64,000 nt of DNA from Candidatus Doudnabacteria bacterium (GCA_025450105.1 JANWIA010000022.1:5630-69629); one strand, 5' to 3'. Numbered from the stretch's first letter, positions 4,634-52,948 are shown. The notes: generated by a model not told the origin, from the sequence alone. Numbers and translations are program-made.

Positions 4634-5125
4634 ATGGAAGAATACGATTCTCTTCTTGCCGTGACACAACGAAGCGCAGTCCAGTTCTTTTACGACCACC
4701 TACTGGACCTAGCTCCTGACGCATCGAAAAATGAAAAACTTTACAACGCATCGGTTCTGGCACACAGTGCAAGCACTTCTGTGTGTTCCACTGAGCACTT
4801 CCCAAGCACCATCCCCAACCTCAAAGTTTTTTTTGATCGATTTGTCTTGGACAGAAGCGAGCACCACGATCCCGAACTTTTCGAAGCTGCTGGGGCGCAG
4901 TGCTTAGTCCTGACTGGGTTCTTTGCCCGACAGATGCGGCACAACCACAACCTTGAGTGGTACGCGTCATTAGGCAAAGGATTCTTCAAGAGGTCAGCTG
5001 ATTACGGCACTGACCCGGCAAGAGTCCGGATGATGACGGTGATGGCAAGCGAGTTCGGTTACTGGCAACAAAAGTACCGCATACTCAGTCGTAAGATTCG
5101 CGAGTCGCCCTATCTGTTGCACTAA
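4634..5125 (+). CDS. Hypothetical protein (high-GC island gene; start at MEEYDSLL with GGAGGA SD at 4623-4628)
   Basis: Long ORF, strong SD, local GC clearly above flanks; no recognisable motif. Confidence 0.4.
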   Translation: MEEYDSLLAVTQRSAVQFFYDHLLDLAPDASKNEKLYNASVLAHSASTSVCSTEHFPSTIPNLKVFFDRFVLDRSEHHDPELFEAAGAQCLVLTGFFARQMRHNHNLEWYASLGKGFFKRSADYGTDPARVRMMTVMASEFGYWQQKYRILSRKIRESPYLLH

Positions 5126-5175: not shown

Positions 5176-5481
5176 TCACGCCGACTTACGTCTCGATTGG
5201 ATTTTCTCCTGAACCTTCGCAACTTCCTCAAACGTGATTGTCCTGCTGAAGCTGTAAAAATTAGAGCCTTGCTTCTTCGTCAGCACCAAGAAGGTGTAGC
5301 TAGCGCGGGCAACCACCCGTTCACACTTTCCTTGATCACTGACCTCAATAATCCTGTACTCGATGCCGTCAGTGACCAATTCTGTAAACTCCAGAAACAA
5401 AGTCGAGACTTCGGCGCCGTCGTCCTTCGACAACATTTCCAGAATCGCTTCCGTCTCCGAGACGGTAATCTTTAATTTCAC
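5176..5481 (-). CDS. Hypothetical protein (high-GC island gene, GTG start preceded by AAGGAGG)
   Basis: ORF plus SD; no recognisable motif. Confidence 0.4.
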   Translation of the reverse strand: MKLKITVSETEAILEMLSKDDGAEVSTLFLEFTELVTDGIEYRIIEVSDQGKCERVVARASYTFLVLTKKQGSNFYSFSRTITFEEVAKVQEKIQSRRKSA

Positions 5482-5578
5482 GCATCCTCCTTAACAGGAT
5501 CTAAGTATACCTATTTAGTCATAAAAACAGAAGACCCCGATCGCATTGTGCGTTCGGGGTCCTTCAGTTGTTGAACTA

Positions 5579-5719
5579 TCAGACCTTGCGGTTTGCCGCC
5601 TGTCTGGATTTGTCCTCCTGTTTCTGTTTAGGCCGTCGTACGATACCCGAGCGGTGGTCCTTCCGCTTCGGATGTTCCGAAACCTTCAAGCGCAGGTCGG
5701 TTTCGTGATTGCTGCACAT
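5579..5719 (-). CDS. Small basic peptide, about 46 aa (MCSNHETDLRLKVSEHPKRKDHRSGIVRRPKQKQEDKSRQAANRKV); absent from the ORF track
   Basis: ATG with GGAGA SD 6 nt upstream; stop followed by hairpin (gaccccga...tcggggtc) plus T-run on the minus strand at 5521-5561. Confidence 0.3.
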   Translation of the reverse strand: MCSNHETDLRLKVSEHPKRKDHRSGIVRRPKQKQEDKSRQAANRKV

Positions 5720-5729
5720 CGGATGTCTC

Positions 5730-6026
5730 CTAACTGGCCGCGGCTATGTGTTCGGGTACGTGCGCCAATTCTTCCGGGACTTCATAAATTTTCACGTACG
5801 CGATTTTCAGGGTCTGGTTTTTCCCAATACTGATTTCCATCGAGACCCAAGGGTACTGAGGCCCGTAAGCATTCTTCAGTTCCTCAATGTCCTCGGTGAC
5901 CATACAGCCTTTGAGGACTGTTGAAAGTTCGTGAGCCTTGAGATCGCAGCTAGTGAGGTTGAAAAAAGGAACCACACCCAACTGCAGCAGGAACCTACCA
6001 GCTTCAACTGCGGGTGTGACGTCCAC
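5730..6026 (-). CDS. Hypothetical protein (high-GC island gene, GTG start with AGGAGG SD)
   Basis: ORF plus SD. Confidence 0.4.
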   Translation of the reverse strand: MDVTPAVEAGRFLLQLGVVPFFNLTSCDLKAHELSTVLKGCMVTEDIEELKNAYGPQYPWVSMEISIGKNQTLKIAYVKIYEVPEELAHVPEHIAAAS

Positions 6027-6200: not shown

Positions 6201-6551
6201 CTACACACCAGACTTGCGCACCAGTGAACCGGCGTATCCTTCGTTGGTAGATCTGGGCGGAATCTCGGTGTTCAGGGATTCCAGCCAAACCTTCCTTCTT
6301 CGGAACCAACCTTCATGTCCGGCGATCACGGTCATGTGCCGCTGGATGGCAGCTTTGACCGCATCGGTTTGTGGGTGGAGCCTTGCCTTTTTGATCTTCT
6401 TGGCAAGACGTTGGCCTTCGGCCGTACGCGGTTCATCCAACGCTGACAGCCTCGGATGTACTGTGTCCTGTGAATCGGAATCGCTTGTTTCGGCTGATGA
6501 ATCGTTAGCCTCCACATCAGCGGGAAGATCAAACGGGTCGACACTATTCAT
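6201..6551 (-). CDS. Hypothetical protein with acidic N-terminus and basic C-terminus (high-GC island gene)
   Basis: ATG at 6551 preceded by AAGGAGG; ORF of 116 aa. Confidence 0.45.
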   Translation of the reverse strand: MNSVDPFDLPADVEANDSSAETSDSDSQDTVHPRLSALDEPRTAEGQRLAKKIKKARLHPQTDAVKAAIQRHMTVIAGHEGWFRRRKVWLESLNTEIPPRSTNEGYAGSLVRKSGV

Positions 6552-7765: not shown

Positions 7766-7851
7766 TGGTGCCGAAGGAGGGAGTCGAACCCTCATGAGGA
7801 AACCCCGCACGATTTTGAGTCGTGTGCGTCTGCCAGTTCCGCCACTTCGGC
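7766..7851 (-). tRNA. tRNA-Leu (anticodon CAA), class II with long variable arm, CCA encoded
   Basis: Cloverleaf folded by hand: 7-bp acceptor stem GCCGAAG/CTTCGGC, anticodon loop CTCAAAA, T-loop TTCGACT, 14-nt variable arm. Confidence 0.9.
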
Positions 7852-11091: not shown

Positions 11092-11703
11092 TTATTTTAG
11101 TGCGGTGCGGATAGTTTCAATACTTATTGGACCTTCGCGCAAGACCGCAACCTTATGGTCATTGATTGCAACAATGGTCGATGGTTTGACCTGTTTGAGC
11201 TTACCGCCGTTTAAATAGTAATCGGGCTTGAGTTTACTTTTCTTAAATTGAGCGCGGATGGCCTTTACAGTATAACAGGTTACGCGACCAGAACGGTTCG
11301 CAGATGTCGCGGTGATTGGCCGGCCCAGGGTTTTGACAATATGCTTAACCACTTTGTGGTCAGGCATTCGGAATCCCAGCGTCCCGCTGCCCGACGACAA
11401 CTGTTTCCATGTCCCAGAATTTTTCTTTAGCGGCAATACAATTGTAATCGGCCCAGGGAAAAGTTTTTGGATAATTTTCTTAGCCGGCGCATTCAATTTC
11501 ACCACGCGATTCAGTTCCACAAATGATGGAAAAATTACATGCACTGGTTTGTTAAAATTCCTCCCCTTAACTTCATACAATCTTTTAACGGCAATGGGAT
11601 TGGTCGCATCAACCGCCAATCCATAAGCGGTATCGGTTGGATAAACCACAACCCCGCCATTCCTAATTGTTTCAACAGCTTTTGATATTTGTTCGGATGT
11701 CAT
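11092..11703 (-). CDS. tsaC: L-threonylcarbamoyladenylate synthase (TsaC/YrdC/Sua5 family)
   Basis: GGVVVYPTDTAYGLAVDATN and VKGRNFNKP motifs. Confidence 0.8.
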   Translation of the reverse strand: MTSEQISKAVETIRNGGVVVYPTDTAYGLAVDATNPIAVKRLYEVKGRNFNKPVHVIFPSFVELNRVVKLNAPAKKIIQKLFPGPITIVLPLKKNSGTWKQLSSGSGTLGFRMPDHKVVKHIVKTLGRPITATSANRSGRVTCYTVKAIRAQFKKSKLKPDYYLNGGKLKQVKPSTIVAINDHKVAVLREGPISIETIRTALK

Positions 11704-14054
11704 TATTCTTTCACAACAAAATTGATTAATCGGTTAGGCACAAAAATTTCTTTCACAATCTGCTTACCTTCCAAATATTTCTTCGTTGATTCATTACTCA
11801 TGACAGCAGCACGAACCTCATCCTGCGATGCATCAAATTTAACCATAATGGTTCCTCTGGTCTTGCCCAAAATCTGAACCACGAATTCAATTTCTGAATC
11901 TTTGACCATAGCCGCGTCAAAAACCGGCCAGGCTTGCTGATGAATCGAATCATTATGACCAAGGTTGTGCCAAAGTTCTTCAGTAATGTGGGGCGCGAAT
12001 GGCGCAAGCAATTTGAGCAAAGTTTCCAAGTCAGATTGATTAATCTTGCTGTTCTCATTCAAAAATTCCATGAATGCCGCAATAGATGTATTAAATTTGA
12101 ACGACTCAATATCGCTGCTAATTTTTTTAACGAGCTTATGAATATTTTTTCCACTTTGGACTTGAGGGTCGATTTGCAAAGCACTTAATCGATCCAAGAA
12201 TCTTCGAACCCCAACAACCCCTTGATCATTCCAAGACACAGTTGCATCATGTGGGCCTAAAAACATTTCGAACATTCTCAAAGTGTCGGCGCCGTGACTG
12301 GCAACAATATCGTCCGGATTGACCACGTTGCCGAGGCTCTTGCTCATTTTTTCGCCGTCTGGACCTAATATAATTCCATGAGGCACGCGCTTTAAATATG
12401 GTTCCGAAACCGTAACGTGGCCTTGGTCGAACAAAAATTGGTTCCAAAATCTAGAATAAAGTAAATGCAAAGTGGTATGTTCCATGCCGCCAAAATAAAC
12501 GTCAACTGGCTGCCAACGCTGCAATTTTTGTTTGGCCGCGAATTCTTTTACATTCTGAGGATCGGCATATCGCAAAAAATACCAGGAACTTCCTGCCCAT
12601 TGCGGCATGGTATTGGTTTCGCGTTTGGCCGGGCCTTGGCACTTTGGGCAAGTTGTATTGACCCACGATTCAATTGCCGCCAGGGGCGATTCGCCGGTGC
12701 CGGTTGGCTCGTATTTTTCGACTTCCGGTAAAACTACAGGCAATTGGTCTTCTGGAATTGGGACAATACCGCAATTTGGGCAGTGCACTAAAGGAATTGG
12801 TTCGCCCCAATAACGTTGACGGGAAAAAACCCAGTCGCGCAATTTGTATTGAACCTTGGGTAATCCAAAATCCGCGGTAATGTGCTGGCGCGCTTCATCT
12901 GTTGGCATGTAACTGTATTCACCGGAATTGACCAGTTTGCCTTCACCGGTAAACGGTTCTTCATCCGATTCTTTTTCCGGAGCTACGACTTTTTTGATAG
13001 GCAATTTATATTTTTTGGCAAAAGCAAAATCCCGATCATCGTGCGCCGGAACGGCCATGACCGCACCGGTGCCGTAGTTGGCCAAAACGTAATCAGCAAT
13101 CCAAACTGGGATTTTTTCTTCAGTTGCCGGATTGATTGCGAACGCACCAGTAAAGACTCCAGTTTTTTCTTTATCAACCGAAGTTCGTTCTTTTTCGGAT
13201 TTTGAACCAGCCCATGTCACATATTTTTCAACTTCTGCTTTTTGGTCCGCAGTAGTAATTTCTTTAACTAAAGGATGTTCCGGCGCCAAAACCATGTAAG
13301 TTGCGCCAAATAAAGTGTCCGGGCGGGTGGTAAAAACCTCAATTGATTTTCCACCAACAGGAAATTTGAGCAACGCCCCGTCGGATCGGCCAATCCAATT
13401 CTTTTGCTGCAACTTAACTGCTTCCGGCCAATCTAAACTTTCCAAACCGTCAATTAATTTTTGCGCATAAGCGGTAATGCGCAAATACCATTGGCGCATC
13501 TCGCGTTTTTCAACTTCAGTGCCGCAGCGTTCACACTTACCATCAACGACCTCTTCGTTGGCCAGCCCAGTTTTGTCTTTTGGGCACCAGTTAATCAAGC
13601 CTGTGGCTTCAAACGCCAAACCGACTTTATAGAATTGTAAAAAAATCCACTGCGTCCATTTATAATATTCCGGATCAGTTGTGTTTATTTCGCGCGACCA
13701 ATCAAAACTCATACCCCAACTTTGCAATTGGCGTTTAGAATTGGCAACGTTTTCCATTGTTGAAACTTTTGGCTGGACTCCGGTCTTGATGGCAAAATTT
13801 TCCGCCGGCAAACCAAAGGCATCCCACCCAATAGGATACAAAACTTCATGGCCGCGCATGCGCCAATACCTACTATATGTATCGCCCGCCGTATACGGTC
13901 GCAAGTGGCCCATATGCAAACCTGTTCCTGATGGATAAGGGAATTCAATCAAGACATATTTTTTTGGCTTATCAGAGCCATCGTCGGCCTTATAAATTGA
14001 CTTCTGCTGCCAAAATTCCTGCCATTTTTTTTCAATTTGCTTGTGGTCAAACAT
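11703..14054 (-). CDS. leuS: Leucyl-tRNA synthetase
   Basis: HMGH and KMSKS class I motifs; 783 aa; full-length LeuS similarity. Confidence 0.95.
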   Translation of the reverse strand: MFDHKQIEKKWQEFWQQKSIYKADDGSDKPKKYVLIEFPYPSGTGLHMGHLRPYTAGDTYSRYWRMRGHEVLYPIGWDAFGLPAENFAIKTGVQPKVSTMENVANSKRQLQSWGMSFDWSREINTTDPEYYKWTQWIFLQFYKVGLAFEATGLINWCPKDKTGLANEEVVDGKCERCGTEVEKREMRQWYLRITAYAQKLIDGLESLDWPEAVKLQQKNWIGRSDGALLKFPVGGKSIEVFTTRPDTLFGATYMVLAPEHPLVKEITTADQKAEVEKYVTWAGSKSEKERTSVDKEKTGVFTGAFAINPATEEKIPVWIADYVLANYGTGAVMAVPAHDDRDFAFAKKYKLPIKKVVAPEKESDEEPFTGEGKLVNSGEYSYMPTDEARQHITADFGLPKVQYKLRDWVFSRQRYWGEPIPLVHCPNCGIVPIPEDQLPVVLPEVEKYEPTGTGESPLAAIESWVNTTCPKCQGPAKRETNTMPQWAGSSWYFLRYADPQNVKEFAAKQKLQRWQPVDVYFGGMEHTTLHLLYSRFWNQFLFDQGHVTVSEPYLKRVPHGIILGPDGEKMSKSLGNVVNPDDIVASHGADTLRMFEMFLGPHDATVSWNDQGVVGVRRFLDRLSALQIDPQVQSGKNIHKLVKKISSDIESFKFNTSIAAFMEFLNENSKINQSDLETLLKLLAPFAPHITEELWHNLGHNDSIHQQAWPVFDAAMVKDSEIEFVVQILGKTRGTIMVKFDASQDEVRAAVMSNESTKKYLEGKQIVKEIFVPNRLINFVVKE

Positions 14055-14110
14055 TGTAATTTTTGGGGTTAAATGCTATATTGAGGCCCTACGAATCGCG
14101 AGGAGGAAAC

Positions 14111-14554
14111 ATGAACGATCCGATCAGCGGAAATCTCATTCTGGTCGCTGAAAACCTGCTCACTGAATACCGCAGGAAGTTGAATTATTTCTTGCATCAC
14201 CATCCAGAGGTCAGTGGGAAATGCTACGAAGCTGCTCCAAACCGTCGTTTAGCTGTAAGGGTCGAGACGTCTGATCTGCCACTCATCCGGGCTGAGCAAA
14301 AAACATCTAACGAGTTCGAGGCGGTCTACATTGCGCTCCTCGAGGTTGCAAAGACTGACAGGGAGTGCAATGCCGCCATGCACGCTTGGCACAAAATCCC
14401 GCCTGGAGAGTATCGCAAAGCGAACCTGATCATCACCATCGTCGATCCCAATCGACCAGTCACGTCCCAGGGGCTTTCTCCTACGGACATGCGCTTCCTG
14501 AAGTCTCTACGCATCAGCGGTGACGGACTCACTGAACCGACAAATCCCACCTAG
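14111..14554 (+). CDS. Hypothetical protein (isolated high-GC insert; ATG at 14111 with AGGAGG SD at 14101-14106)
   Basis: ORF plus strong SD; GC above flanks; no motif. Confidence 0.4.
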   Translation: MNDPISGNLILVAENLLTEYRRKLNYFLHHHPEVSGKCYEAAPNRRLAVRVETSDLPLIRAEQKTSNEFEAVYIALLEVAKTDRECNAAMHAWHKIPPGEYRKANLIITIVDPNRPVTSQGLSPTDMRFLKSLRISGDGLTEPTNPT

Positions 14555-14573
14555 GGGTTTGTCGGTTTCCCAC

Positions 14574-15392
14574 TCAAACTTTAATATTGAATAAAGAACA
14601 AGCGTTTCTAAAAGTTAATTCGGCTATTTCTTCGGAACTAGCTTTTTTTATTTCCGCAATCTTGTCCACCACGTACCTTACATACATTGGTTCGTTGCGC
14701 TTGCCGCGAAACGGTGGTGGCGTTAAATACGGCGCATCAGTTTCCACTAACATTCTATCAGATGGCATCTTTTCTATCACTTCTGCCAACTTCCCTGTTT
14801 TATCAAAGGTCAAAATGCCGTTGAACGCCACATAAAAACCAATATCTAAAAACTTTTTCGCCGTCTCCCAATTATCTGTAAAGGAATGAATGACGCCTGG
14901 CCCATCAGAATATTCGGACTTCAAAATTTTGAGCACGTCTTCGTAAGCATCACGGCAATGAATAATTATCGGGCGTTTGTATTTTTTGGCAAAACGCAAT
15001 TGCGCAAAAAACGCTTGCTGTTGTTTTTCGATTGCCGAATCCTTGTTGCTTTCCGGTAGACGAAAATAATCCAAACCACTCTCGCCAATCGCCACAACTT
15101 TGTCATTCAATAGTTCGGCATATTTTATTTCATCAAAGCTTTCTTCGCGGGATTTAAAATGGCTTTCCTCTTCGTCCACCATTTGCTGGTAAGTGTGGAT
15201 GGGGTGCAAACCAATTGCCGCAAAAACTCCTTGCGGATATTTTAAAGCGATACTTGCCGATTCCTTACTAGTGTCGTACTGTGTCCCAACATTAACCATC
15301 CAGGTTTGGTTTTCCAAAGCCCGTTTGGTTACCGGATCGGCATCATCTTTAAATGCCGTAAAATTGACGTGGGTATGGGTATCAAAAAACAT
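14574..15392 (-). CDS. tatD: TatD family metal-dependent deoxyribonuclease/hydrolase
   Basis: MFFDTHTHVNF N-terminus with conserved His/Asp/Glu ligand pattern. Confidence 0.85.
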   Translation of the reverse strand: MFFDTHTHVNFTAFKDDADPVTKRALENQTWMVNVGTQYDTSKESASIALKYPQGVFAAIGLHPIHTYQQMVDEEESHFKSREESFDEIKYAELLNDKVVAIGESGLDYFRLPESNKDSAIEKQQQAFFAQLRFAKKYKRPIIIHCRDAYEDVLKILKSEYSDGPGVIHSFTDNWETAKKFLDIGFYVAFNGILTFDKTGKLAEVIEKMPSDRMLVETDAPYLTPPPFRGKRNEPMYVRYVVDKIAEIKKASSEEIAELTFRNACSLFNIKV

Positions 15393-15393
15393 G

Positions 15394-16827
15394 CTAATCG
15401 ATTTTTGGGAACAGTGGTTCAGCTTTTATAATATTTTCGTTTTCAAAAGTTTTTCGGATCTTGTCTGCAGTATCGGGCAGGACCGGTGACAATTTTTGCG
15501 CGATATCATAAAGCAAAGCCGCTAAATTGTTCAGCAACTCCTTAACCTTATCTGGATCGGTTTTGACCAAATCCCAAGGTTTGGCCTTATCAATCAATTG
15601 GTTGGCCCAGGCAATTGCTTCCCAAATTTCGGTTAGGCCCGTGGAAAAATCCAAGTTTCGGAACGCTTCCAGCGCGTCGGACAAATCTTTTGGTGAACTA
15701 ATGTATTCCGCATCTCCATCCAAAAATTTCTCAATCATGTTAGTTGTCCGGGAAAATAAATTTCCCAATCCATTTGCGAGATCACCGTTGTAGCGAGCTT
15801 TAAGTTTTTCTTCACTGACGTCGCCATCCTGACCAAACGGCACTTCACGCAGCAAAAAGTACCGGACAGCATCCGGAGTGTATTTACTGGCCCATTCTAA
15901 TGGATCAATGGCATTACCCAAAGACTTACTGATTTTCTGTCCACCAGATGTAAAAAATCCATGGGCAAAAACGGTTTGCGGCAATTTTTCGCCAATCGCC
16001 AACAGCACCGCTGGCCAAATGACACAGTGAAATTTAATAATGTCCTTGCCGATCACATGAATATCCGCCGGCCAAAAACGTTCATACTTTTCCTGATCTG
16101 CACCGTAACCAACAGCAGAGCAATAATTAAACAATTCATCCAACCAAACGTAAATGGTTTGTGATTCGTCCCAAGGCAAAGGTAGGGCAAACTTTGCCGT
16201 GCGGCGGGAAACAGCAATATCTTCCAAACCTTGTTTAATGAACGATAAAATTTCGTTGCGGCGGGACTGCGGCAAAATGTGTAATTCCCCGCTCTCAATT
16301 TTTTCTGTTAAAATTTTTCCGTATTCCGACAATTTGAAAAACCAATTTTTTTCTTTAATCCATTCCGGTTTGCGGTTATGCAACGGACACAAACCGTTAA
16401 CTAAGTCTTCTTCCTTCTTAAAAGATTCGCAACCAATACAATACCAGCCTTCATAATCGGCTTCGTATAATTTTCCGGAAGCTTTTAGTTTTTCAAAAAA
16501 TAATTTTACGGCATCGGTGTGACGTTTTTCTGTGGTCCGGATAAAATCATCCGGCGCGATATTTAAAGTATCCCAGGCCAAAGAAAACTTGGCGGAATTT
16601 TCATCCACAAAATCTTCAACTTTTTTGCCGGCCTTTTCCGCACTCTCGGCAATCTTGCTGCCGTGCTCGGCCGTGCCGGTCAAAAACAAAACGTCTTTGC
16701 CCAACTGCCTGTGCAAACGCGCCAAAACATCCGCGGCAATAGTTGTGTAGGCCGAACCAATGTGCGGCTTGTCATTGACGTAGTAAATCGGTGTCGTGAT
16801 ATAAAATTTTGTTCGTTCTTCGGTCAT
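15394..16827 (-). CDS. metG: Methionyl-tRNA synthetase (short form)
   Basis: PYYVNDKPHIGSAYT (HIGH-like), KISKS, Zn-knuckle CxxC..CxxH. Confidence 0.95.
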   Translation of the reverse strand: MTEERTKFYITTPIYYVNDKPHIGSAYTTIAADVLARLHRQLGKDVLFLTGTAEHGSKIAESAEKAGKKVEDFVDENSAKFSLAWDTLNIAPDDFIRTTEKRHTDAVKLFFEKLKASGKLYEADYEGWYCIGCESFKKEEDLVNGLCPLHNRKPEWIKEKNWFFKLSEYGKILTEKIESGELHILPQSRRNEILSFIKQGLEDIAVSRRTAKFALPLPWDESQTIYVWLDELFNYCSAVGYGADQEKYERFWPADIHVIGKDIIKFHCVIWPAVLLAIGEKLPQTVFAHGFFTSGGQKISKSLGNAIDPLEWASKYTPDAVRYFLLREVPFGQDGDVSEEKLKARYNGDLANGLGNLFSRTTNMIEKFLDGDAEYISSPKDLSDALEAFRNLDFSTGLTEIWEAIAWANQLIDKAKPWDLVKTDPDKVKELLNNLAALLYDIAQKLSPVLPDTADKIRKTFENENIIKAEPLFPKID

Positions 16828-16962
16828 TTTTGTGTGGAAAAATAAAGAAAACGGCTCAATGGCCGACTCAATTATACCATATTCCTTAAGGTTTTTGTAA
16901 TTTTGCTTGCAATAGTTTTTTTATATATACTCTAGGTAGCAATAACATCAAGGAGGCACTTG

Positions 16963-17334
16963 ATGCCACGCGTTCGAGATACCAGGAAACCTGCTGAACC
17001 CGAGCCGTATATCGATCCGTACACTACTCCGTCCAGACAACGAAGGGGTGAGGTACACATCGGTCAGACGGTCATCGAGATTGGCCACTTTGATCCATCG
17101 CAAGTTATCCCGCTCCTTGATGAAGAAGAGTGTCCGCACCTGAAGGATCTGCGCGCCGACAAAGAACTCGAGGTTGAGTACAGGCCCTCCCGGATCCGCC
17201 TCATCTTCAGCAGAAGCTGCAAGGCCCACAAGCCTGAAGAGGTCTACCACTACCTTCGCGATAACCTGTTCCCCAACTGGAAGGAACAGGACGACGCTGA
17301 ATTTCTCCTCATGCTCGAAGACGTCGCGGCCTAA
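16963..17334 (+). CDS. Hypothetical protein (isolated high-GC insert; ATG at 16963 with AGGAGG SD at 16951-16956)
   Basis: ORF plus strong SD; GC above flanks. Confidence 0.4.
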   Translation: MPRVRDTRKPAEPEPYIDPYTTPSRQRRGEVHIGQTVIEIGHFDPSQVIPLLDEEECPHLKDLRADKELEVEYRPSRIRLIFSRSCKAHKPEEVYHYLRDNLFPNWKEQDDAEFLLMLEDVAA

Positions 17335-17352
17335 AGCCGCTGCAACAAAAAG

Positions 17353-17392
17353 CCCCGCTCTTTCTTACGAGAGAGCGGGGTCTTCATTTTTT
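17353..17392. terminator. Bidirectional intrinsic terminator between convergent genes
   Basis: 8-bp GC stem ccccgctc/gagcgggg flanked by A-run upstream and T-run downstream. Confidence 0.6.
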
Positions 17393-17396: not shown

Positions 17397-18458
17397 CTAT
17401 TCGTCGTTGCCCCACATGTCATGGACAAAGACTGACGCCGCGCCAATGAGAGGAATTGCCAAGATAGCACCAACTATGCCGCCCAAGGTGCCGCCAACTA
17501 AAATCCCTAGAATAATTAGCACCGGACTTAGGCCGACACTCTTACTCATGACTACGGGCACAATAATATGATTTTCTAATTGCTGAATGACAACATACAA
17601 AATAATTACGGCCAAGGCCAACGGCGGGTTTTGTAAGAAGGCGAAGAATGCCGCTGGTAAAACCGAAATGAACGGGCCGACATAAGGAATGATTTCCAAT
17701 AATCCCGCGGTCAATGCCAAGGCTAGCGCGAAATCAATTTTCAAAAAGGTCAAACCTAAAAACGTTAAACCAAAAATAATAACCGATAAAATTAACTGCC
17801 CCAAAACCCATGCGCCAATTTTGCGCTGGATTTTTGTCACCAGGCCCATAGCGTAAGCCTGACTCTTGAATGGCACCAACTGTTTAACAAAATTCTTCAT
17901 GCCATTTTCTTCGGCCGTGAGATAAAATGAAATAACCAAAACAGTCAGCGTGGAGATAATGCCGTTGAAAATTCCCTTTGTGGTTTCGAATAATGATCCG
18001 GAAATGCTTCCCGCCCAATTCTTAATATTGGTTTCGATAGATTGGCTAATCCCCAATTGGTTAAGGTTCTCTTTAAAAATACCAAGTTTTGAATTTAACT
18101 TATCCAGAAAGTCGCCTTGCGAAATTTCGTGGAATTGCTGGCCAATTGCCGGCGCCATCAAATAAACGAACAAAACAGCAATACCAATAAATAATAGATA
18201 AACAAGGATAACGCTCAAGCCTCGAGGAACATGTTTCTTGCGCAAGTAATCGGCGACCGGATCCATGGCCGAGGAAATAATAACGGAAATAAGCAACAAC
18301 AAAAGGATTGCGCGGATCTCGAATAAGAACCAAAGTAAAAGCAAAACCGCCACCACTTTGAGAATAGAGATGGTTGAAATAGTTACTGTGTTGTGTCGCT
18401 CTTCTGCCATGGATTTAGTATAGCTTATTCTGTTCGTGTTATAAAGCCTAAATTTCAC
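17397..18458 (-). CDS. AI-2E family (PerM/YhhT-like) transporter
   Basis: Length and 8-TM topology with conserved C-terminal GxxG-rich segment. Confidence 0.55.
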   Translation of the reverse strand: MKFRLYNTNRISYTKSMAEERHNTVTISTISILKVVAVLLLLWFLFEIRAILLLLLISVIISSAMDPVADYLRKKHVPRGLSVILVYLLFIGIAVLFVYLMAPAIGQQFHEISQGDFLDKLNSKLGIFKENLNQLGISQSIETNIKNWAGSISGSLFETTKGIFNGIISTLTVLVISFYLTAEENGMKNFVKQLVPFKSQAYAMGLVTKIQRKIGAWVLGQLILSVIIFGLTFLGLTFLKIDFALALALTAGLLEIIPYVGPFISVLPAAFFAFLQNPPLALAVIILYVVIQQLENHIIVPVVMSKSVGLSPVLIILGILVGGTLGGIVGAILAIPLIGAASVFVHDMWGNDE

Positions 18459-20726: not shown

Positions 20727-22079
20727 CTAAATAATTAATTTTTTCACAAAATATTTTACCAATTCGTCAATCTTGATTCGTTCCTGTTGCATAGTGTCGC
20801 GGTCGCGGACAGTCACAGACTTATCATTGGCCGTTTCAAAGTCGACGGTCAAGCAATATGGTGTGCCGATTTCATCCTGGCGGCGGTAGCGCTTGCCAAT
20901 CGAACCAGACGTGTGATGTTCGACCATCCAGTGCTTCGCTAATTTTTTGGCAATATCCATTGATACTATTGTCAGCTCGTCTTTTTTAGATAGGGGTAGA
21001 ATTGCGACCTTAATTGGCGCTAATTCTTTTGGCAACTTTAAAGTAACTTCGGTCTCATGCACGGCATCGTCCTTGCCTGATCGGGCTTCAGTTTCGGTGT
21101 ACGATGAAAGAAGCACCGCCAAAATTGTTCTATCAACTCCCCAGGTCGGTTCAATTACATGAGGTGTGTATTCTTCACCACTGACCGGATCTTTATATTT
21201 TAAATTCTTTCCAGAAGCTTGCTCATGTCGGGACAAATCATAATCGGTGCGATATGCAATTCCATAAAGCTCTTTTTGACCGAATGGATAAACAAATTCG
21301 GTATCAACAGAGCGTTTACTATAGAATGCCCTGTCTTCATCTGAAATTTCCACGTACTTAACCTTCGATTCATCTAAACCGATAGCAGTAACCCACCGCT
21401 TTTGTTCTCCCAGCCAGTGTTCAAAATATTTTTCTGCATCTTTTGGGTGGACAAAATATTCAATTTCCATTTGCTCAAATTCACGAGTGCGGAAAATAAA
21501 ATTGCCAGGAGTAATTTCATTTCTGAACGCCTTACCAATCTGCGCAACACCAAATGGAATCTTAACCTGATAGTTATCGATAATTTGTTTAAAATCAACG
21601 AACATTGCTTGAGCTGTTTCTGGACGAAGATAAACTACAGACCCTTCGCTCTCCACCGGACCCAAATAGGTCTTAAGCATCATATTAAATTGTCGAGCTT
21701 CGGTAAATTCGTGTTTGCCCCCTTTTTGGCATTTCCAAAAAGAATCCTCTTGATCGGTGGGCAAACTATCTGCTCGAAATCTCTCATGACATTTTTTACA
21801 CTCGACCAAGGGATCGGAGAAATTTTTTAAGTGCCCAGACGCTTCCCAAACTTTGGGATTCATGATTATTGCAGCATCTAGACCGGCCATATCAAATCGT
21901 TGCTGGACAAACATTTTCCACCACAGTTTCTTGATGTTGTTTTTAAGTTCCACACCCAGCGGTCCGTAGTCCCAGGAGTTTGCCAAGCCGCCGTAAATTT
22001 CGCTTCCGGGAAAAATAAAACCTCGCCTCTTAGCGAGCGAGATTACTTTGTCCATCAAATCTGGTTGTTGTTTCTTCAT
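20727..22079 (-). CDS. glyQS: Glycyl-tRNA synthetase, class II dimeric type
   Basis: N-terminus RRGFIFPGSEIYGGLANSWDYGPLG and class II motifs; 450 aa. Confidence 0.9.
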   Translation of the reverse strand: MKKQQPDLMDKVISLAKRRGFIFPGSEIYGGLANSWDYGPLGVELKNNIKKLWWKMFVQQRFDMAGLDAAIIMNPKVWEASGHLKNFSDPLVECKKCHERFRADSLPTDQEDSFWKCQKGGKHEFTEARQFNMMLKTYLGPVESEGSVVYLRPETAQAMFVDFKQIIDNYQVKIPFGVAQIGKAFRNEITPGNFIFRTREFEQMEIEYFVHPKDAEKYFEHWLGEQKRWVTAIGLDESKVKYVEISDEDRAFYSKRSVDTEFVYPFGQKELYGIAYRTDYDLSRHEQASGKNLKYKDPVSGEEYTPHVIEPTWGVDRTILAVLLSSYTETEARSGKDDAVHETEVTLKLPKELAPIKVAILPLSKKDELTIVSMDIAKKLAKHWMVEHHTSGSIGKRYRRQDEIGTPYCLTVDFETANDKSVTVRDRDTMQQERIKIDELVKYFVKKLII

Positions 22080-22967: not shown

Positions 22968-23339
22968 TCATGTGGTTTTGGAAACTTTGCTTATGGCTTC
23001 TGCCAGAGAGTAGGCACTTGGGATGCCTTCTACCGACTCGTTTGGTTTTGAGGGAATTGCCCCAAATTGAGTCAGAGCAGTTCTCGCCCGGCTCCCGGCT
23101 GGAACGAACCAGCACGATTTGATGTTGTGAGACAGCAACAGCTGATGGCTGCCCACAACATGAGCCATTCCGCCACTATCGAAGCGCGTAACACCGCTGA
23201 GGTCGATAATAGCCATTTTGATGCCAGCTGCAAGAGCGGATTCGATTTCATTCTTGAGGGCATCTTCGGGGTCCAACGACATCATCTCTGAAACAGTGAC
23301 CACCAAGAGGTCATTATGAACGACGGTGCTAATAAGCAA
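22968..23339 (-). CDS. STAS-domain protein (anti-sigma-factor antagonist SpoIIAA-like), high GC, TTG start with AAGGAGG SD
   Basis: IIDLSGVTRFDSGGMAHVV block resembles a STAS phospho-site region. Confidence 0.55.
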   Translation of the reverse strand: MLISTVVHNDLLVVTVSEMMSLDPEDALKNEIESALAAGIKMAIIDLSGVTRFDSGGMAHVVGSHQLLLSHNIKSCWFVPAGSRARTALTQFGAIPSKPNESVEGIPSAYSLAEAISKVSKTT

Positions 23340-23393: not shown

Positions 23394-24545
23394 CTATTCT
23401 TTGGTTCGGTCCTGATAATTTTCTAGTAAGTGGTCAAATTTTTCGGTTTCGATTGTTTCGCGGATCCGCGTCATGAGATTTAAATAGAATCGGAGGTTGT
23501 GCATGGTCGCTAAACGAATTCCGAGTGGTTCTTGTGAGGCCAACAAATGGCGGATATAAGCGCGAGTAAAGTTCATGCAGCCGTAGCAATTACAGGCATT
23601 ATCAACTGGCGTAAAATCTTCCTTAAATTTTTCGTTCATGATATTCATGGTCACGTAGCCTTCACCTTCGCCTGGTTTGAGGTTAACATAAAACTTTCCA
23701 TGTCGCGCTTCGCGGGTTGGAATAACACAATCAAAACTGTCGCAGCCAAGTCCCACTGCGCGGACAATTTGTTCCGGCGTTCCCACGCCAAGTAAGTGCT
23801 TGGGTTTTTCTTCTTCCAAATGCGGCATGGAATAACTTACGGCGTCATACATTCGCTGTGGGTCTTCACCGCCGTTGGCCACGCCACCAATGCAATAGCC
23901 GGGAAAATCGAGACTGCGAATTTCTTCTGCGGATTGTTTTCGTAAATCCGGAAAAATTGCGCCCTGAACAATTCCCCATTGCATTTGACCGGGATTGATA
24001 GAATTCGCCACTAATTTTTTATGTTCTTCCTTGGCACGCGCCGCCCACATACTGGTGCGCTCCACCATTGCGCGAACGACTTCCTTGTCGGCCAATGCGC
24101 CGGGAAACTCATCCAAAACAAGTGCTATGTCTGAACCCAAATTCAATTGGATCTGCACGGATTTTTCTGGCGTCAAAATAAAAGTGCTGCCATCAACTTC
24201 GGACTGGGATTGCACGCCGTTATCGGAAGTCTTAACCATTTTGGCCAAAGAAAAAACTTGGAACCCGCCGGAGTCGGTAAAAATTGCGGATTTCCAGTTC
24301 ATGAACTTGTGCAGGCCGCCGGCTTTGGCAATCAAAGCGTCACCCGGCCGCTGCCACAAATGGTAAGTGTTGGCTAAAATCATTTCCGCGCCCCAAAATT
24401 TTAATTCTTCCGCGGCAATGGATTTAATGGCACCCTTAGTGCCAATGGGGTTAAACACCGGTGTCTTCACATCACCATGCGCCGTGTGAATGACCCCCAG
24501 CCTGGCCTTGCTCTTTGAATCTTTTTTGAGAATTGTAAATGACAT
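23394..24545 (-). CDS. tgt: Queuine tRNA-ribosyltransferase (tRNA-guanine transglycosylase)
   Basis: Full-length Tgt similarity; Zn site CxCxxC...H near C-terminus (CNCYGCMNFTRAYIRHL). Confidence 0.9.
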   Translation of the reverse strand: MSFTILKKDSKSKARLGVIHTAHGDVKTPVFNPIGTKGAIKSIAAEELKFWGAEMILANTYHLWQRPGDALIAKAGGLHKFMNWKSAIFTDSGGFQVFSLAKMVKTSDNGVQSQSEVDGSTFILTPEKSVQIQLNLGSDIALVLDEFPGALADKEVVRAMVERTSMWAARAKEEHKKLVANSINPGQMQWGIVQGAIFPDLRKQSAEEIRSLDFPGYCIGGVANGGEDPQRMYDAVSYSMPHLEEEKPKHLLGVGTPEQIVRAVGLGCDSFDCVIPTREARHGKFYVNLKPGEGEGYVTMNIMNEKFKEDFTPVDNACNCYGCMNFTRAYIRHLLASQEPLGIRLATMHNLRFYLNLMTRIRETIETEKFDHLLENYQDRTKE

Positions 24546-24689: not shown

Positions 24690-25124
24690 TCACCATGAAT
24701 GGGATCCCGGGGTCGTGTAGTCGACGCTCGGAAGAAGCTTGGTTCTGGCACGGGCAGATGTCTGCTTGACCTTTAACCGCTTAAATCTTGAACGCTTCAT
24801 CTCCAGCTCGTCAGTCGTGGAGAGATGGTCTCGAAAACAATTCGGACAATTCCCCTCAAAGTAGTAAAATCCATCCTTGGCAGGAGCGGCCCGGAACTCG
24901 TCACTTACGCCCGGGATTAGCTTTGAAAGGTTGAGGGAACTCTTGCATCTCGTGCACTGGAACATCATGTACGGAAAATTGTCGCCGGACTTGCAGTGCG
25001 GACACAAACCGTCCGGATTTTCCATCCGCTCCTTGTTTAAGAACACCAAGCCGCAGTTCTCGCAAAGGTATTCTTGTTCCGGGTCCTTGCAAGCCATCGG
25101 CACTTTTGGCTTCGCCACGATCAC
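24690..25124 (-). CDS. Cys-rich hypothetical protein with four CxxC pairs (tandem zinc-ribbon-like)
   Basis: CENCG, CPHCK, CTRCK, CPNC; high GC; AAGGAGG SD. Confidence 0.45.
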   Translation of the reverse strand: MIVAKPKVPMACKDPEQEYLCENCGLVFLNKERMENPDGLCPHCKSGDNFPYMMFQCTRCKSSLNLSKLIPGVSDEFRAAPAKDGFYYFEGNCPNCFRDHLSTTDELEMKRSRFKRLKVKQTSARARTKLLPSVDYTTPGSHSW

Positions 25125-25220
25125 CTCCTTGATCTTAAACGGGATTATACAGTATGGCCGAAATAAAACAAAACGCCGGGAGGTGAGTACCTACCCGGCG
25201 TTGCGAAAGTTGAAAACGGT

Positions 25221-25673
25221 TTAGAGGAAGCTCGTCCATGCGTAGACGATGGCACCGGCCAAAACTGCTGCCTTGGCGAAATTCTGTAGACGACCCTTGA
25301 GGTTGTCCGCGAAAGTCCTTCTGCGAAGTTCCTCAAGATTGTCAGCCCAGTACCGAACGCAGGCTTGACGACGATCATCCGTCGCCTCGTCCCACGAACT
25401 GTACGCTTCTTCGACCTCGAATTCCGTGATTCCCATGATCCTCGCCACGAACTTGGTCATGTTCTTTCGATTCATTCGCGCCTTGATCTTTTCGATATCG
25501 ATCGGACGATCGAGGATGGTGAATACCATGATCGCCATGGGACAAACGACGTTGCCTCCATTCGGATCGTACCAGTCGCCGTGAGCGAGTTTTTCGGCGG
25601 AAGTCAGCGCGACCAGACAAGCTTCCTGGTGCTCGGCCGCGACGAGTACTGTTGGCACATCTCGCATGTACAT
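25221..25673 (-). CDS. Hypothetical protein (high-GC island)
   Basis: ORF with GGAGGA SD. Confidence 0.4.
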   Translation of the reverse strand: MYMRDVPTVLVAAEHQEACLVALTSAEKLAHGDWYDPNGGNVVCPMAIMVFTILDRPIDIEKIKARMNRKNMTKFVARIMGITEFEVEEAYSSWDEATDDRRQACVRYWADNLEELRRRTFADNLKGRLQNFAKAAVLAGAIVYAWTSFL

Positions 25674-25794
25674 CAGATCCTCCGTTTCTGTTTCAGCCTA
25701 TGCAAGTTAAAGAAATGATACCAACCAGTTTCCTTTCTGGCAAACAAAACCTCTGCCATAAGTCTAACAATGGCAGAGGCCTTCCTCATGACTT

Positions 25795-26310
25795 CTAGAG
25801 CTTCTTGATAGAGGACAGCTTCTCGATCGCAGCGCGCAGCTGTTCCGAGAAGATACCCAATTGTTCCGAAGGAATCTCGTCGTCACCGGGTATGCTGTAG
25901 GGTCGTTTGAACTGGAATTCTCCTTCAAGTGGGAAGGGCAGCACAAACTTAGGTCCAAAATTCGCCACAGGACCCGCGGCTCCGAAGGGATTAGGGCAGA
26001 CTTCCGGATCTCCCATTGCCGTCATCCACAGGACATGAAGCTTGATCCGGAGCATGTAGGTCTTAACTTCGAACTTTTCGATGACCCACGTGCCGGTCTG
26101 TGACCAGATGCGACCTTGGGCAACCACTGGTGAAGGCACTTCGACTTCCATTAATGCACTCTCCAGCATGCCCGTCACGTACTCAATGACCTGCCCGTGA
26201 TGCAGCTTCACCAGGTACTCTTTCACCTTGGGATCATCGTTTCGAATGACCGGATTCACTTCTACCCGGCTTAGTTCTGAAGGCTTGGATTTCTTTTTCC
26301 CCTTTGCCAT
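25795..26310 (-). CDS. Hypothetical protein with Lys-rich N-terminus (high-GC island)
   Basis: ORF with AGGAGG SD. Confidence 0.4.
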   Translation of the reverse strand: MAKGKKKSKPSELSRVEVNPVIRNDDPKVKEYLVKLHHGQVIEYVTGMLESALMEVEVPSPVVAQGRIWSQTGTWVIEKFEVKTYMLRIKLHVLWMTAMGDPEVCPNPFGAAGPVANFGPKFVLPFPLEGEFQFKRPYSIPGDDEIPSEQLGIFSEQLRAAIEKLSSIKKL

Positions 26311-26358
26311 CCGTTCCTCCTTGTTCGCAAATGATAGCAGATCCCTGATTATTTTCCC

Positions 26359-26444
26359 ATCCCGAACTTATTTCGGGATCTTTTTTTAAGAGATCCTGAA
26401 ATGAATTCAGAATGGTATTAATAATCCCCGCTCGTGCGGAGATT
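26359..26444. repeat. Palindromic repeat units (atcccgaa-cttat-ttcgggat; degenerate atcctgaa..ttcagaat; atccccgc..gcggagat)
   Basis: Same family. Confidence 0.6.
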
Positions 26445-26447
26445 AAA

Positions 26448-26675
26448 TTACTTAGGAGTGCCTTTTGATTTCCTGTTATTCCATTTTTCTTTCCATTTGT
26501 CCCAGAAGGTTAAGCGGATGCCCCAGATTCCAAATCCAAAAAAGATTAACCATGAACCGGGAGTTAATGGAGTGACTAATGCAACCAGACCGATCAAAAT
26601 TAAAACGATGCCAAGAATTCTTTTGGCTAATGATGCTTGTGACGGGGTAAATTCAAAAATATCTTTCCAATTCAT
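26448..26675 (-). CDS. Small two-TM membrane protein, PGPGW-like motif (LTPGSW)
   Basis: Hydrophobic segments flanking a Pro-Gly turn; 75 aa. Confidence 0.3.
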   Translation of the reverse strand: MNWKDIFEFTPSQASLAKRILGIVLILIGLVALVTPLTPGSWLIFFGFGIWGIRLTFWDKWKEKWNNRKSKGTPK

Positions 26676-26825
26676 GCAATAAGGATACCACCCTGCATAC
26701 TATTGTTCAATGAGACAAAATAAAAAAGGGTGCCGATCCTGGGAACATCCCAAGCTTCCGGCACCCTGCCCAGCTATCCCGTTCCTGCGTTTAAAACGGG
26801 AGTCACCAAACCTCAATCTTGTAGT

Positions 26826-27026
26826 TCAAGGTCCAACGATCAGCTTTGGATCCTTTTCGCCCAACGCCAACGCATCAACCTTCTTGCACTCAAAAGGCTC
26901 TGCGATCAGACGACCCGCCTTGTCCGTTGTAATCCGAATGGACGCTTTTCCACGATGCACAACAACGGTGTCGCCCTCATCCGTATCAACAACCAACGGT
27001 GTCTTCTTCACCATTGTGATAACCAT
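26826..27026 (-). CDS. Small hypothetical protein, about 66 aa (start at MVITM, GGAGG SD)
   Basis: ORF plus SD; high GC. Confidence 0.3.
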   Translation of the reverse strand: MVITMVKKTPLVVDTDEGDTVVVHRGKASIRITTDKAGRLIAEPFECKKVDALALGEKDPKLIVGP

Positions 27027-28790: not shown

Positions 28791-29130
28791 ACGATTTGAT
28801 TAATTGGTTAATAGATTTATTTAAATTTTCCCAGTTGTCCGTAAGATTCTTTAACGTTTCCTTGCCCTTATCTGTTAGCGAATAATATTTGCGCGGCGGC
28901 CCAGAATCTGATTCGTTCCATTTATAACTTAACAGCCCAGTAGTTTTAAGTCTGCTAAGCAGCGGGTATAAAGTTCCTTCGACCACAATTAAATCAGCTT
29001 CTTTAAGCTGATTTAAAATATCGGTGGCATAAACCTCACCGCGGCCAATAATGAGCAAAATGCAGAACTCCAAAGTTCCTTTGCGCATCTGGGCCTTATT
29101 GTTTTCTAGGTCTGTTTCTGGGGTTTTCAT
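28774..29130 (-). CDS. PadR family transcriptional regulator
   Basis: Winged-helix block ILNQLKE...EGTLYPLLSRLKTTGLL; overlaps start of the downstream PspC gene. Confidence 0.8.
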   Translation of the reverse strand: MKTPETDLENNKAQMRKGTLEFCILLIIGRGEVYATDILNQLKEADLIVVEGTLYPLLSRLKTTGLLSYKWNESDSGPPRKYYSLTDKGKETLKNLTDNWENLNKSINQLIKSYEKNN

Positions 29131-29188
29131 ATATAAACCCAGTATAAACTATAAGTACCTTGCAATGCAAGGTACTATGTGTGGATAA

Positions 29189-29800: not shown

Positions 29801-30025
29801 TTAGGCAAGGCCTAGGTCGAAAGAAGCGAGAACTCGCCTCAACCAGTCAATGGTCTTATCATCAACTTGAGGGATTCTTTTCAGATCCCTGACCAACACA
29901 CCTGCCACATCCCGAACATAGACGTAGCCTCGCTGCCTCAGCACACCCAATCGAGGGCGGCCCTCCGGAAATTTCATCCGAAGCATTACGAGTGATAGAT
30001 CGCGTGGATCTCTCAGCTTCTTCAT
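29801..30025 (-). CDS. Hypothetical Arg-rich 74-aa protein (high-GC patch, AAGGAG SD)
   Basis: ORF plus SD. Confidence 0.3.
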   Translation of the reverse strand: MKKLRDPRDLSLVMLRMKFPEGRPRLGVLRQRGYVYVRDVAGVLVRDLKRIPQVDDKTIDWLRRVLASFDLGLA

Positions 30026-50983: not shown

Positions 50984-50986
50984 ACA

Positions 50987-52904: not shown

Positions 52905-52948
52905 GAAAGATTGACGCTAACTGCCACAAATGATATATTCAACGGCAG

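Follow-up and report, generated by a model that had tools for sequence, protein, structure and literature searches.

Why small, GC-rich genes with strong Shine-Dalgarno (SD) sites should stand singly among housekeeping genes that lack such sites is the question raised by a 64-kb stretch of DNA from Candidatus Doudnabacteria (64,000 nucleotides, GCA_025450105.1 JANWIA010000022.1:5630-69629, referred to here as the window). Two open reading frames (ORFs) of this kind, designated 14111 and 16963 after their first nucleotides, enclose the genes for a TatD-family hydrolase and methionyl-tRNA synthetase (MetRS), the first lying next to the leucyl-tRNA synthetase (LeuRS) gene and the second next to that of an AI-2E family transporter. 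It is fairly probable that they result from the repeated insertion of autonomous single-gene cassettes, drawn from an SD-using, lineage-wide pool of about 52-55% GC, into intergenic slots. The analysis covers this one window of one metagenome-assembled genome (MAG), with loci fetched from relatives for comparison, gene starts in the relatives are partly called in this work, and promoters and terminators are assigned throughout as consensus matches. The window has a GC content of 44.5% and carries ordinary cellular genes; the nearest relatives of its MetRS (72-79% identity) come from Candidatus Doudnabacteria MAGs, and the window is assigned to the chromosome of this groundwater-type member of the candidate phyla radiation (CPR, or Patescibacteria). 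An exact-sequence look-up for the MetRS and for ORF 14111 gave no match, the next-best MetRS being 79% identical, and the window proteins are singletons known from one NCBI contig.

The window was divided into 67 genes, taken as the longest non-overlapping ORFs with starts refined by SD position, and a strong SD was defined as an anti-SD duplex energy of -8 kcal/mol or lower. Sixteen of the 67 genes have such a site and the other 51 span +2.8 to -7.1 kcal/mol, a gap that makes SD strength bimodal. The division coincides with composition, since a GC content at third codon positions (GC3) of at least 0.53 is found in all 16 SD-led genes and in only 6 of the 51 others (2x2 table 16/0 and 6/45; Fisher p = 7e-11), and the medians differ for GC (0.519 vs 0.424; Mann-Whitney p = 6e-9), for GC3 (0.602 vs 0.451; p = 1e-8) and for length (126 vs 272 aa; p = 3e-6). 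SD-led status is also tightly coupled to the observed/expected ratio (O/E) of the dinucleotide AG/CT. Of the 63 occurrences of the motif GGAGG, 18 lie 4-11 nt before the start of an ORF that is 60 aa or longer, against 4 of 63 for its reverse complement CCTCC, with a spacing of 4-6 nt in 13 cases and duplex energies of -8 to -12.7 kcal/mol. The initial annotation, made from the sequence, had described 14111-14554 and 16963-17334 as high-GC ORFs with strong SD sites between aminoacyl-tRNA synthetase genes, had seen the same signature at 22968-23339, 29801-30025, 50597-51481, 60509-60895 and from 63806 to the window end, and had counted at least nine patches. Coordinates, GC and AGGAGG-type sites of the two focal ORFs were confirmed, ORFs with the described properties were found at each of the other places, and Pfam identified LeuRS, MetRS and a class II ProRS/HisRS-type enzyme among the flanking genes. 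The class as now delimited comprises about 17 ORFs in 10 patches (about 6.6 kb, 10% of the window), with additional members at 4634-5125, 5176-5481, 5730-6026, 6201-6551, 24690-25118, 25221-25673, 25795-26310, 26826-27026 and 52973-53668. The initial annotation had named a lack of bimodality in GC or SD usage as an outcome that would speak against it, and within the window this outcome did not occur.

The native genes of the backbone are started in other ways. Four of them (33084, 41503, 34301 and 26448-26675) have a -10 element 6-7 nt before the ATG and no SD, and are probably leaderless, whereas the rest have short A/T-rich leaders, -10 boxes 10-25 nt upstream or an operon-internal position, and none has an SD. 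The two styles can be direct neighbours: at 26448-26675 (minus strand) a PGPGW-family membrane ORF of GC 0.38, with its -10 box 6 nt from the ATG, adjoins the SD-led ORF 26826-27026 (66 aa, GC 0.51).

The SD-led genes have a composition of their own. Patch genes prefer CTC/CTG, ATC, TTC, TAC, CAC, AAG, AGG and CCC where the backbone uses TTG/TTA, ATT, TTT, TAT and AAA, and in a leave-one-out log-likelihood ratio (LLR) of synonymous codon usage 14 of the 16 patch genes exceed every backbone gene except one wrong-strand ORF call. First and second codon positions (GC1, GC2) are shifted too, and so are the amino acids, with R, E and C raised and I, N, K, T and G lowered. The Karlin dinucleotide distance (delta*) between patches and backbone is 194-198, compared with 50 +/- 14 between random halves of the patch set and 52 +/- 16 between backbone samples of equal size, so that the patches do have a common k-mer signature distinct from the backbone (about 195 against about 50), the point for which the initial annotation had proposed a check. 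Native DNA is depleted in AG/CT (O/E 0.68-0.70, against 0.97-1.00 in patch ORFs), whichever of the three codon junctions is considered (0.59-0.76), and so is the DNA between genes at a distance from patches (0.78); the depletion is absent from patch-flanking intergenic DNA (0.94). GAG/CTC (0.48), GTAC (0.32) and AGAG/GAGA (0.30-0.37) are likewise scarce in native DNA, while in the patches the same words reach 0.72-0.94.

Two further features of composition were recorded. The native avoidance is strand-symmetric, also affects CTAG (O/E 0.18) and is weaker in the relatives (AG/CT 0.75-0.9); restriction avoidance, mutational context and avoidance of SD-like words are candidate causes. A second atypical class, with a GC of 0.35-0.39, no SD and little AG/CT depletion (0.76-0.93), is found at 28774-29755, 53719-54294, 57734-58990 and 61123-61536 and includes PadR, an Mrr-type restriction endonuclease, a 4'-phosphopantetheinyl transferase (PPTase), an S-adenosylmethionine-dependent (SAM) methyltransferase and two proteins of unknown function; low-GC inserts are present in relatives as well (L001 4356-4997 and 11463-11930, and the NERD gene in L081).

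The patch genes are built on a common plan, in which a promoter-like -10 element is followed by a leader of 20-40 nt with AGGAGG, an ORF of 63-231 aa and usually a hairpin terminator. At consensus level, 11 of 15 units have a -10 box 19-41 nt upstream, and seven of these boxes match TATAAT at 5-6 of 6 positions and, by eye, have the TG extension (as in TGCTATATT, TGTATAAT, TGCTATCAT and TGCTATAAT). The AGGAGG stands canonically 4-6 nt ahead of the start codon, a G+C hairpin and then a T-run are found 3' of at least 10 units, and the ORFs have the periodicity GC1 > GC2 < GC3. Both focal cassettes conform to this plan. In cassette 1 the promoter and leader are divergent from, and overlap, the start region of LeuRS, GAGGAGG ends 4 nt before the ATG, and ORF 14111 has GC1/GC2/GC3 of about 0.55/0.42/0.60; the hairpin over its stop codon has no clear T-run and is possibly a bidirectional terminator. 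By eye, the ORF 14111 product has no signal peptide or transmembrane segment, and its single-sequence AlphaFold model (pLDDT 38) is unusable. In cassette 2 AAGGAGG (16950-16956) ends 6 nt before the ATG, and the terminator is common to ORF 16963 and the convergent AI-2E transporter gene. The single-sequence model of the ORF 16963 product (predicted template modelling score, pTM, 0.50) predicts a disordered Pro/Arg-rich N-terminal tail and then a ferredoxin-like alpha/beta domain. In both cassettes the SD region is complementary to a CTCCT stretch within its own ORF (16946-16955 with 17113-17122, 10 of 10 bases; 14094-14105 with 14336-14347, 10 of 12 bases), which may sequester the SD or may be a mere product of frequent CTC-CTN codons.

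The position of these genes varies among relatives. Syntenic loci were compared in L001, L003, L004, L082, L083-85 and L086 (MetRS 60-78% identical), of which L082, L083-85 and L086 represent three related species. The order PNPase-TGT-DedA-ProRS-M16-Nfo-AI2E-MetRS-TatD-LeuRS-...-SHMT-ParB is largely kept, with some local gene gain and loss. The slot between the AI-2E and MetRS genes, which is 569 nt long and holds ORF 16963 in the window, is empty in the three related species (72-155 nt), measures 128 nt in L001 and does not exist in L003, where the flanking genes overlap. The slot between TatD and LeuRS (519 nt, with ORF 14111) is equally empty in the three related species (1-66 nt), and is occupied by a 147-aa antisense SD-led ORF of GC 0.53 in L001, by a 91-aa SD-led ORF in L003 and by two other genes in L004. 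Homology between the 147-aa slot ORFs of the window and L001, suggested by a resemblance to the eye, was tried and rejected (BLASTP E = 27; below shuffled controls, z = -0.8). The slot between TGT and DedA is taken by a STAS gene in the window and, in L001, by two different mini-ORFs, both SD-led, and the PNPase/TGT interval is variable in every genome compared.

Other kinds of insertion were seen in the same syntenic block. In the RIFCSPLOWO2_02_FULL_48_8-type species an IS200-type Y1 transposase gene lies just upstream of the AI-2E gene (L083 1050-2987, together with a Peptidase_S74 protein; L084 779-1381; L085 811-1341), and a LAGLIDADG ORF follows BacA in L083 (14636-15235).

The two-class pattern recurs in the separate assemblies L001, L081, L086 and L089. 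In L081, whose PNPase is 81% identical to that of the window, six SD-led orphans of GC 0.51-0.59 stand within 9 kb beside SD-less PNPase, Xer and NERD genes, and two further GC-rich small ORFs lie among native genes; the sole one of these orphans that is related to a window gene is P0010 (8001-8492), with 31% identity to 25221-25673. In L089 a member of the 25795 family is SD-led and has a GC of 0.53, beside a leaderless-looking gene of GC 0.45. L082, L083 and L086 have 0-2 strong SD sites per about 20 genes, and almost every such site belongs to a GC-rich small orphan. The pooled orphans of L081 and L001 have a delta* of 64 to the window patch set and of 208 to the window backbone. This GC, codon and dinucleotide signature, common to the patches, unlike the backbone and found also in the orphans of the relatives, makes horizontal acquisition most likely; the foreign origin is suggested by composition together with synteny, and the signature common to several species suggests a common, lineage-associated pool. 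Two adjacent SD-led orphans of L081 (2280-2663 and 2688-3086), beside its Xer-like recombinase, are paralogs at 37% identity, indicating that cassettes can duplicate in tandem.

Homologs are few. A HMMER search (E <= 1e-3) of eight patch proteins against 1.84 billion representative proteins found one relative for 25221, one for the STAS protein, six for 25795, seven for the membrane protein encoded at 50597 and about 95 for 50987-51481, which is a divergent Macro-family protein, as shown by Macro domains in its multidomain relatives. The families with homologs are located in Doudnabacteria-like contexts or on short anonymous contigs, and the presence of the 25221 and 25795 families in Doudnabacteria-like contigs indicates that the class is old and lineage-associated. 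A word-based search with the PlsC-type acyltransferase (52973-53668) returned only itself. Pfam, NCBIfam, PHROGs and PADLOC yield only the STAS domain, a weak zinc ribbon, the acyltransferase and a primase-type CHC2 finger; ORF 14111 has no match in any of the four and forms a singleton cluster, none of 10 patch ORFs matches a PHROG, and none of 10 patch proteins matches a PADLOC defence model. Beyond the divergent Macro-family relation of 50987-51481, no defence or toxin-antitoxin component was found with PADLOC, Pfam or NCBIfam. The recognisable members (Macro, STAS, zinc ribbons, primase-type finger) suggest accessory, regulatory or conflict-type roles. In tblastn searches of 50,697 phage records (15 ORFs) and 72,556 plasmid records, the only matches were trivial ones to the acyltransferase and the primase finger, with none for the orphans; scans of IMG/VR for relatives of the orphans, and of metagenomes for the 25795 family, were negative. 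By dinucleotide distance no convincing donor was found among 87 fetched loci (best delta* 76-82).

These results divide the explanation given by the initial annotation, which had proposed repeated acquisition of small fragments from a higher-GC, SD-using donor, for example a host or co-resident bacterium, or a phage. Repeated acquisition agrees with the bimodal composition and with the focal slots that are empty in relatives; the scarcity of homologs, on the other hand, argues against an ordinary bacterium, such as a co-resident or host, as recent donor and favours an unsampled, fast-evolving mobile pool. A phage donor gained no support, as no phage or plasmid homologs of the orphans were found in the collections searched. 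Native genes start translation without an SD, some apparently as leaderless messages (TATAAT 6-7 nt before the ATG) and others from short A/T-rich leaders, and each cassette has its own putative sigma-70 promoter, often with a TG-extended -10. The host ribosome presumably retains a functional anti-SD tail, and cassette genes would be translated by the classical 30S/SD route and host genes by SD-independent routes. Phages, plasmids or other mobile elements of Doudnabacteria, or a long-term partner organism, are candidate sources of the pool.

Several points weigh against insertion of cassettes from a mobile pool. The evidence base is a single 64-kb window, and the searches just described found no phage or plasmid evidence for the pool; phage DNA, moreover, is usually not GC-richer than its host. 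ORFs 14111, 16963 and 29801 match only themselves among the 1.84 billion representatives, and because such orphans have no homologs the case for acquisition is built from composition and synteny and not from phylogeny. At the borders of the cassettes there is no integrase or transposase gene, no target-site duplication and no att/attC-like site. The only recombinase of the window is XerC/D-like and lies 16 kb away (33084-34082), and the single tRNA-Leu gene adjoins neither focal ORF. Native and patch genes use one common promoter type (extended -10). Finally, the pairs 25221/P0010 (in the same PNPase/TGT interval) and 25795/P0072 have diverged to 24-31% identity and have kept both SD and high GC. 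These two families may be explained either by repeated re-sampling from the pool or as old residents whose composition has been maintained, and old residence would contradict simple recent horizontal gene transfer. A repeat scan found no convincing flanking repeats around the cassettes, and a candidate target-site duplication at cassette 2, a weak A/T-rich 16-mer of 81% identity, was rejected as likely due to chance.

The main rival, sustained by these two families, holds that the SD-led genes are native, lineage-specific and fast-evolving accessory genes, inherited vertically, whose SD, GC and AG/CT content are kept by selection or by a locus-specific process (for example, recombination hotspots with GC-biased conversion), and that the slot differences represent loss together with extreme divergence. 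It would account for the retention of 25221-25673 and P0010 in one interval at 31% identity against the 81% of PNPase, for 25795-family members that are SD-led and GC-rich in another contig, for the host-type promoters, for the fact that most of the genes have no homologs outside the lineage and for the ORFs of the TatD/LeuRS slot in the window and L001 being both of 147 aa and both antisense to their flanks. It is nevertheless unlikely, because the slots are empty (1-155 nt) in three related species, because those two slot ORFs have no similarity beyond shuffled controls, because the foreign signature reaches flanking non-coding DNA and because all codon positions and amino acids are shifted, as under a different mutational equilibrium; furthermore, there is no known mechanism by which the genes of non-conserved proteins would keep a GC3 of about 0.6 when the genome around them has 44% GC.

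The missing homologs could also be explained if the genes had been born de novo from intergenic non-coding DNA, and the small size of the ORFs, the absence of homologs of 14111, 16963 and 29801 and the low AlphaFold2 confidence for ORF 14111 would fit such an origin. This is very unlikely, however, given that native intergenic DNA has 35-39% GC and the ORFs 48-55% with GC1 > GC2 < GC3, that promoter, SD and usually a terminator are all present in the units, that several members hold old domains (STAS, Macro, acyltransferase, CHC2 finger), that ORF 16963 is predicted to fold from its single sequence and that alignable non-coding ancestors were not seen in the empty slots of the sister genomes. 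Slightly less probable again is that the patch genes are highly expressed native genes in which translational selection has produced strong SD sites and C-ending codons. They do favour NNC over NNT in two-fold boxes and have the strong SD, but AGG, CCC, GAG and CTC are raised as well, GC1, GC2 and amino-acid usage are shifted, and highly expressed proteins are normally conserved whereas the patch genes are orphans. The gene for ribosomal protein S15, the sole ribosomal-protein gene of the window, has backbone codon usage (LLR -0.18, GC3 0.46) and no SD, so that the patch signature is probably not an effect of expression level, as far as one gene can tell. The least probable explanation of all, an artefact of spurious ORFs in GC-rich non-coding elements or of chimeric assembly or contamination, could appeal to a single MAG contig seen once and to focal ORFs without homologs, but it has against it 16 canonically spaced AGGAGG-type sites that precede long ORFs in which the codon positions are periodic, patches of 0.2-2 kb that lie inside one contig and have promoters and terminators at their junctions, and the same architecture in independent assemblies of other samples (L001, L081, L086, L089).

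Insertion of cassettes thus being preferred, the class may be compared with known systems. Like phage morons, the units are small single genes with their own promoter and usually a terminator, between unrelated genes, of deviant composition and with accessory or unknown functions; unlike them, they are flanked by housekeeping genes (aminoacyl-tRNA synthetases, TGT, PNPase) and have no phage hallmark or PHROG match. Classical ORFans exceed their host in A+T content. The patch genes resemble ORFans of the Daubin and Ochman type and the 'atypical genes' of GeneMarkS-2 (PMC6028130) in being short, fast-evolving or homolog-free, atypical and variably present, but they are 8-10 points GC-richer than their host and form one homogeneous class with a different initiation signal. 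Genomes poor in SD and rich in leaderless genes are known (PMC6028130, PMC3160421). As in these, native genes of the window are mostly without SD, some seemingly leaderless, and a minority has a canonical SD, but here that minority consists of variable, compositionally foreign orphans and not of a conserved regulatory set. In Bacteroidota the anti-SD is sequestered and a few genes such as rpsU retain an SD. In the literature searched, no paper was found that describes how CPR use the SD, or that reports foreign, SD-led genes as a minority in a CPR genome otherwise devoid of it. Integron cassettes, including clusters of attC sites or single attC sites lacking integron-integrases (CALINs and SALINs), are likewise small, mostly orphan single-ORF units with their own ribosome-binding site, and several of the L081 orphans lie near a tyrosine recombinase; unlike integron cassettes, patch units have their own promoters, are of mixed orientation and are scattered singly. 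An integron was considered and rejected, as the recombinase at 33084-34082 is Xer-like (XerC 264 bits; integron-integrase 128.6 bits, with a cut-off of 265). No R''/L''-L'/R' architecture was found by eye or by repeat scan, without a dedicated attC model, and the hairpins are terminator-like, with short G+C stems and T-runs.

Table 1. Features of the window: the two focal cassettes and their surroundings, other backbone genes, and other patches with SD-led genes
Feature	Coordinates	Strand	Evidence and properties
LeuRS	11703-14054	-	Pfam; no SD; GC 0.441, AG/CT O/E 0.63
Cassette 1 promoter	14054-14082	+	TTGTAA-17-TATATT with TG extension; consensus scan
Cassette 1 promoter and leader together	14054-14110	+	GAGGAGG in the leader at 14100-14106
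Focal orphan ORF 1 (ORF 14111)	14111-14554	+	147 aa; GC 0.527, GC3 0.608; AG/CT O/E 1.05
Hairpin	14535-14567		14-bp stem; spans the stop of ORF 14111, just past the TatD stop; inverted-repeat scan
TatD-family hydrolase	14574-15392	-	Pfam; no SD
MetRS	15394-16827	-	no SD; query for lineage and syntenic relatives
Cassette 2 promoter-like element and leader	16907-16962	+	TTGCAA ... TATACT; -10 hexamer 31 nt before ATG
Focal orphan ORF 2 (ORF 16963)	16963-17334	+	123 aa; GC 0.551, GC3 0.645; AG/CT O/E 1.13
Intrinsic terminator	17352-17391		13-bp stem, 8 G-C pairs, T-run; after ORF 16963
AI-2E family transporter	17397-18458	-	Pfam; no SD
Class II ProRS/HisRS-type synthetase	20727-22079		backbone gene; Pfam
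TGT	23394-24545		backbone gene
Ribosomal protein S15	32678-32944		no SD
Four SD-led GC-rich orphans between MscL and ParB	4634-5125; 5176-5481; 5730-6026; 6201-6551	+; -; -; -	
STAS-domain ORF	22968-23339	-	SD-led; 123 aa; Pfam 30.8 bits, cut-off 22.6
Cluster in variable PNPase/TGT interval	24690-27026	-	four SD-led ORFs and interspersed native-type 26448-26675
Orphan just downstream of PNPase	29801-30025	-	SD-led; 74 aa; terminator 29794-29766
Two-gene patch	50597-51481	+	50597-50983 SD-led membrane protein; 50987-51481 Macro-family, weaker GGTGG site
PlsC-type acyltransferase	52973-53668	+	SD-led, GC-rich, highly divergent; Pfam, NCBIfam
Stand-alone CHC2 (DnaG-type) zinc finger	60509-60895	+	SD-led; GC 0.465, GC3 0.581
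ORF leaving the window end	63806-64000	+	SD-led; TGCTATAAT promoter, AAGGAGG

Among the other patches, the cluster between MscL and ParB gave no Pfam or PHROG match for three of its ORFs, the fourth (6201-6551) having been scanned against PHROGs and NCBIfam only. Within it, at about 5500-5730 on the minus strand, an AGGAGG (5614-5619) with about 30 nt and a good terminator hairpin has no start codon at the right spacing, and a 29-aa SD-led mini-ORF follows directly after the stop of 5730-6026; these may be a decayed or truncated cassette, suggesting turnover. The STAS ORF, in the TGT/DedA slot, has its own promoter and terminator. The SD-led members of the PNPase/TGT cluster are 24690-25118 (with a weak Zn ribbon), 25221-25673, 25795-26310 and 26826-27026, and their homologs include P0010 and P0016/P0072. 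The CHC2 finger gene is the weakest compositional case of the class. The backbone further includes genes for an Nfo-like endonuclease, an M16 peptidase, DedA, PspC, PNPase, the XerC/D-like recombinase, an ABC exporter, a cyo-type quinol oxidase operon, a DEAD-box helicase, SHMT, BacA and ParB. Rfam finds a single tRNA-Leu (7766-7851) and nothing else in the window, and no rRNA is present there or in any locus fetched from relatives.

Several backbone loci have features of their own. The oxidase operon (36808-41484, plus strand) is cyoABCD-like and encodes a haem-copper quinol oxidase together with a UbiA/haem O synthase (COX2, COX1, COX3, COX4_pro, UbiA); the same operon is found in L088 (1205-5899), on a contig of 54% GC, where a homolog of the 50597 membrane protein adjoins it divergently. 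Genes of aerobic metabolism are reported in soil CPR, Doudnabacteria included (PMC8407418). The region 51522-58990 is a possible small biosynthetic neighbourhood, unusual for a CPR genome, with a ThiF-like E1 (52041-52904), the GC-rich acyltransferase, a PPTase, an Acg/Rv3131-like FMN oxidoreductase (54525-55574), a FeeM-type N-acyl amino acid synthase (55627-56244), two GDSL lipases and a methyltransferase. On the minus strand are also encoded a PAS-PAS-GGDEF-EAL signalling protein (644-2920), a protein of 1845 aa with GC2 of 0.54 in which a peptidoglycan-binding domain is the only one recognised (43448-48985), and an M23 peptidase with FG-GAP repeats (62223-63737). LeuRS has 783 aa in the window (11703-14054) and 834-1141 aa in relatives (L082 12296-15157, L086 12460-15387, L003 12658-16083), some with faint hydrolase-domain matches, which points to a variable inserted domain in this enzyme across the lineage.

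A wider reading, rather doubtful at present, is that Doudnabacteria, and perhaps CPR more widely, combine a core of genes with SD-independent or leaderless initiation with an SD-using, lineage-wide mobile pool, so that two initiation regimes are found in one cell. The pool would have about 52-55% GC and no AG/CT avoidance, its carriers would probably be unsampled phages or plasmids, and through its SD sites it could recruit an anti-SD that the host ribosome would otherwise leave unused. Cassettes would be continually seeded and replaced at intergenic hotspots without a recognisable recombinase, and the SD would mark the accessory or mobile fraction of the genome.

CPR bacteria have tiny genomes, and little is known of their gene flux and translation. 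If the pattern is true genome-wide, SD strength and a dinucleotide index would label the accessory and mobile fraction across the lineage and would indicate a hidden, lineage-specific gene pool; the same metagenomes would be the place to look for its carriers (phages, plasmids or, if the bacterium is an episymbiont, its host partner). Annotation is affected as well, since a gene caller that has learned from the SD-less majority may overlook SD-led genes or place their starts wrongly. Equally, if true genome-wide, these bacteria would be a natural case of one ribosome that initiates both with and without an SD, the two routes perhaps in competition, and would bear on the evolutionary loss and retention of SD usage.

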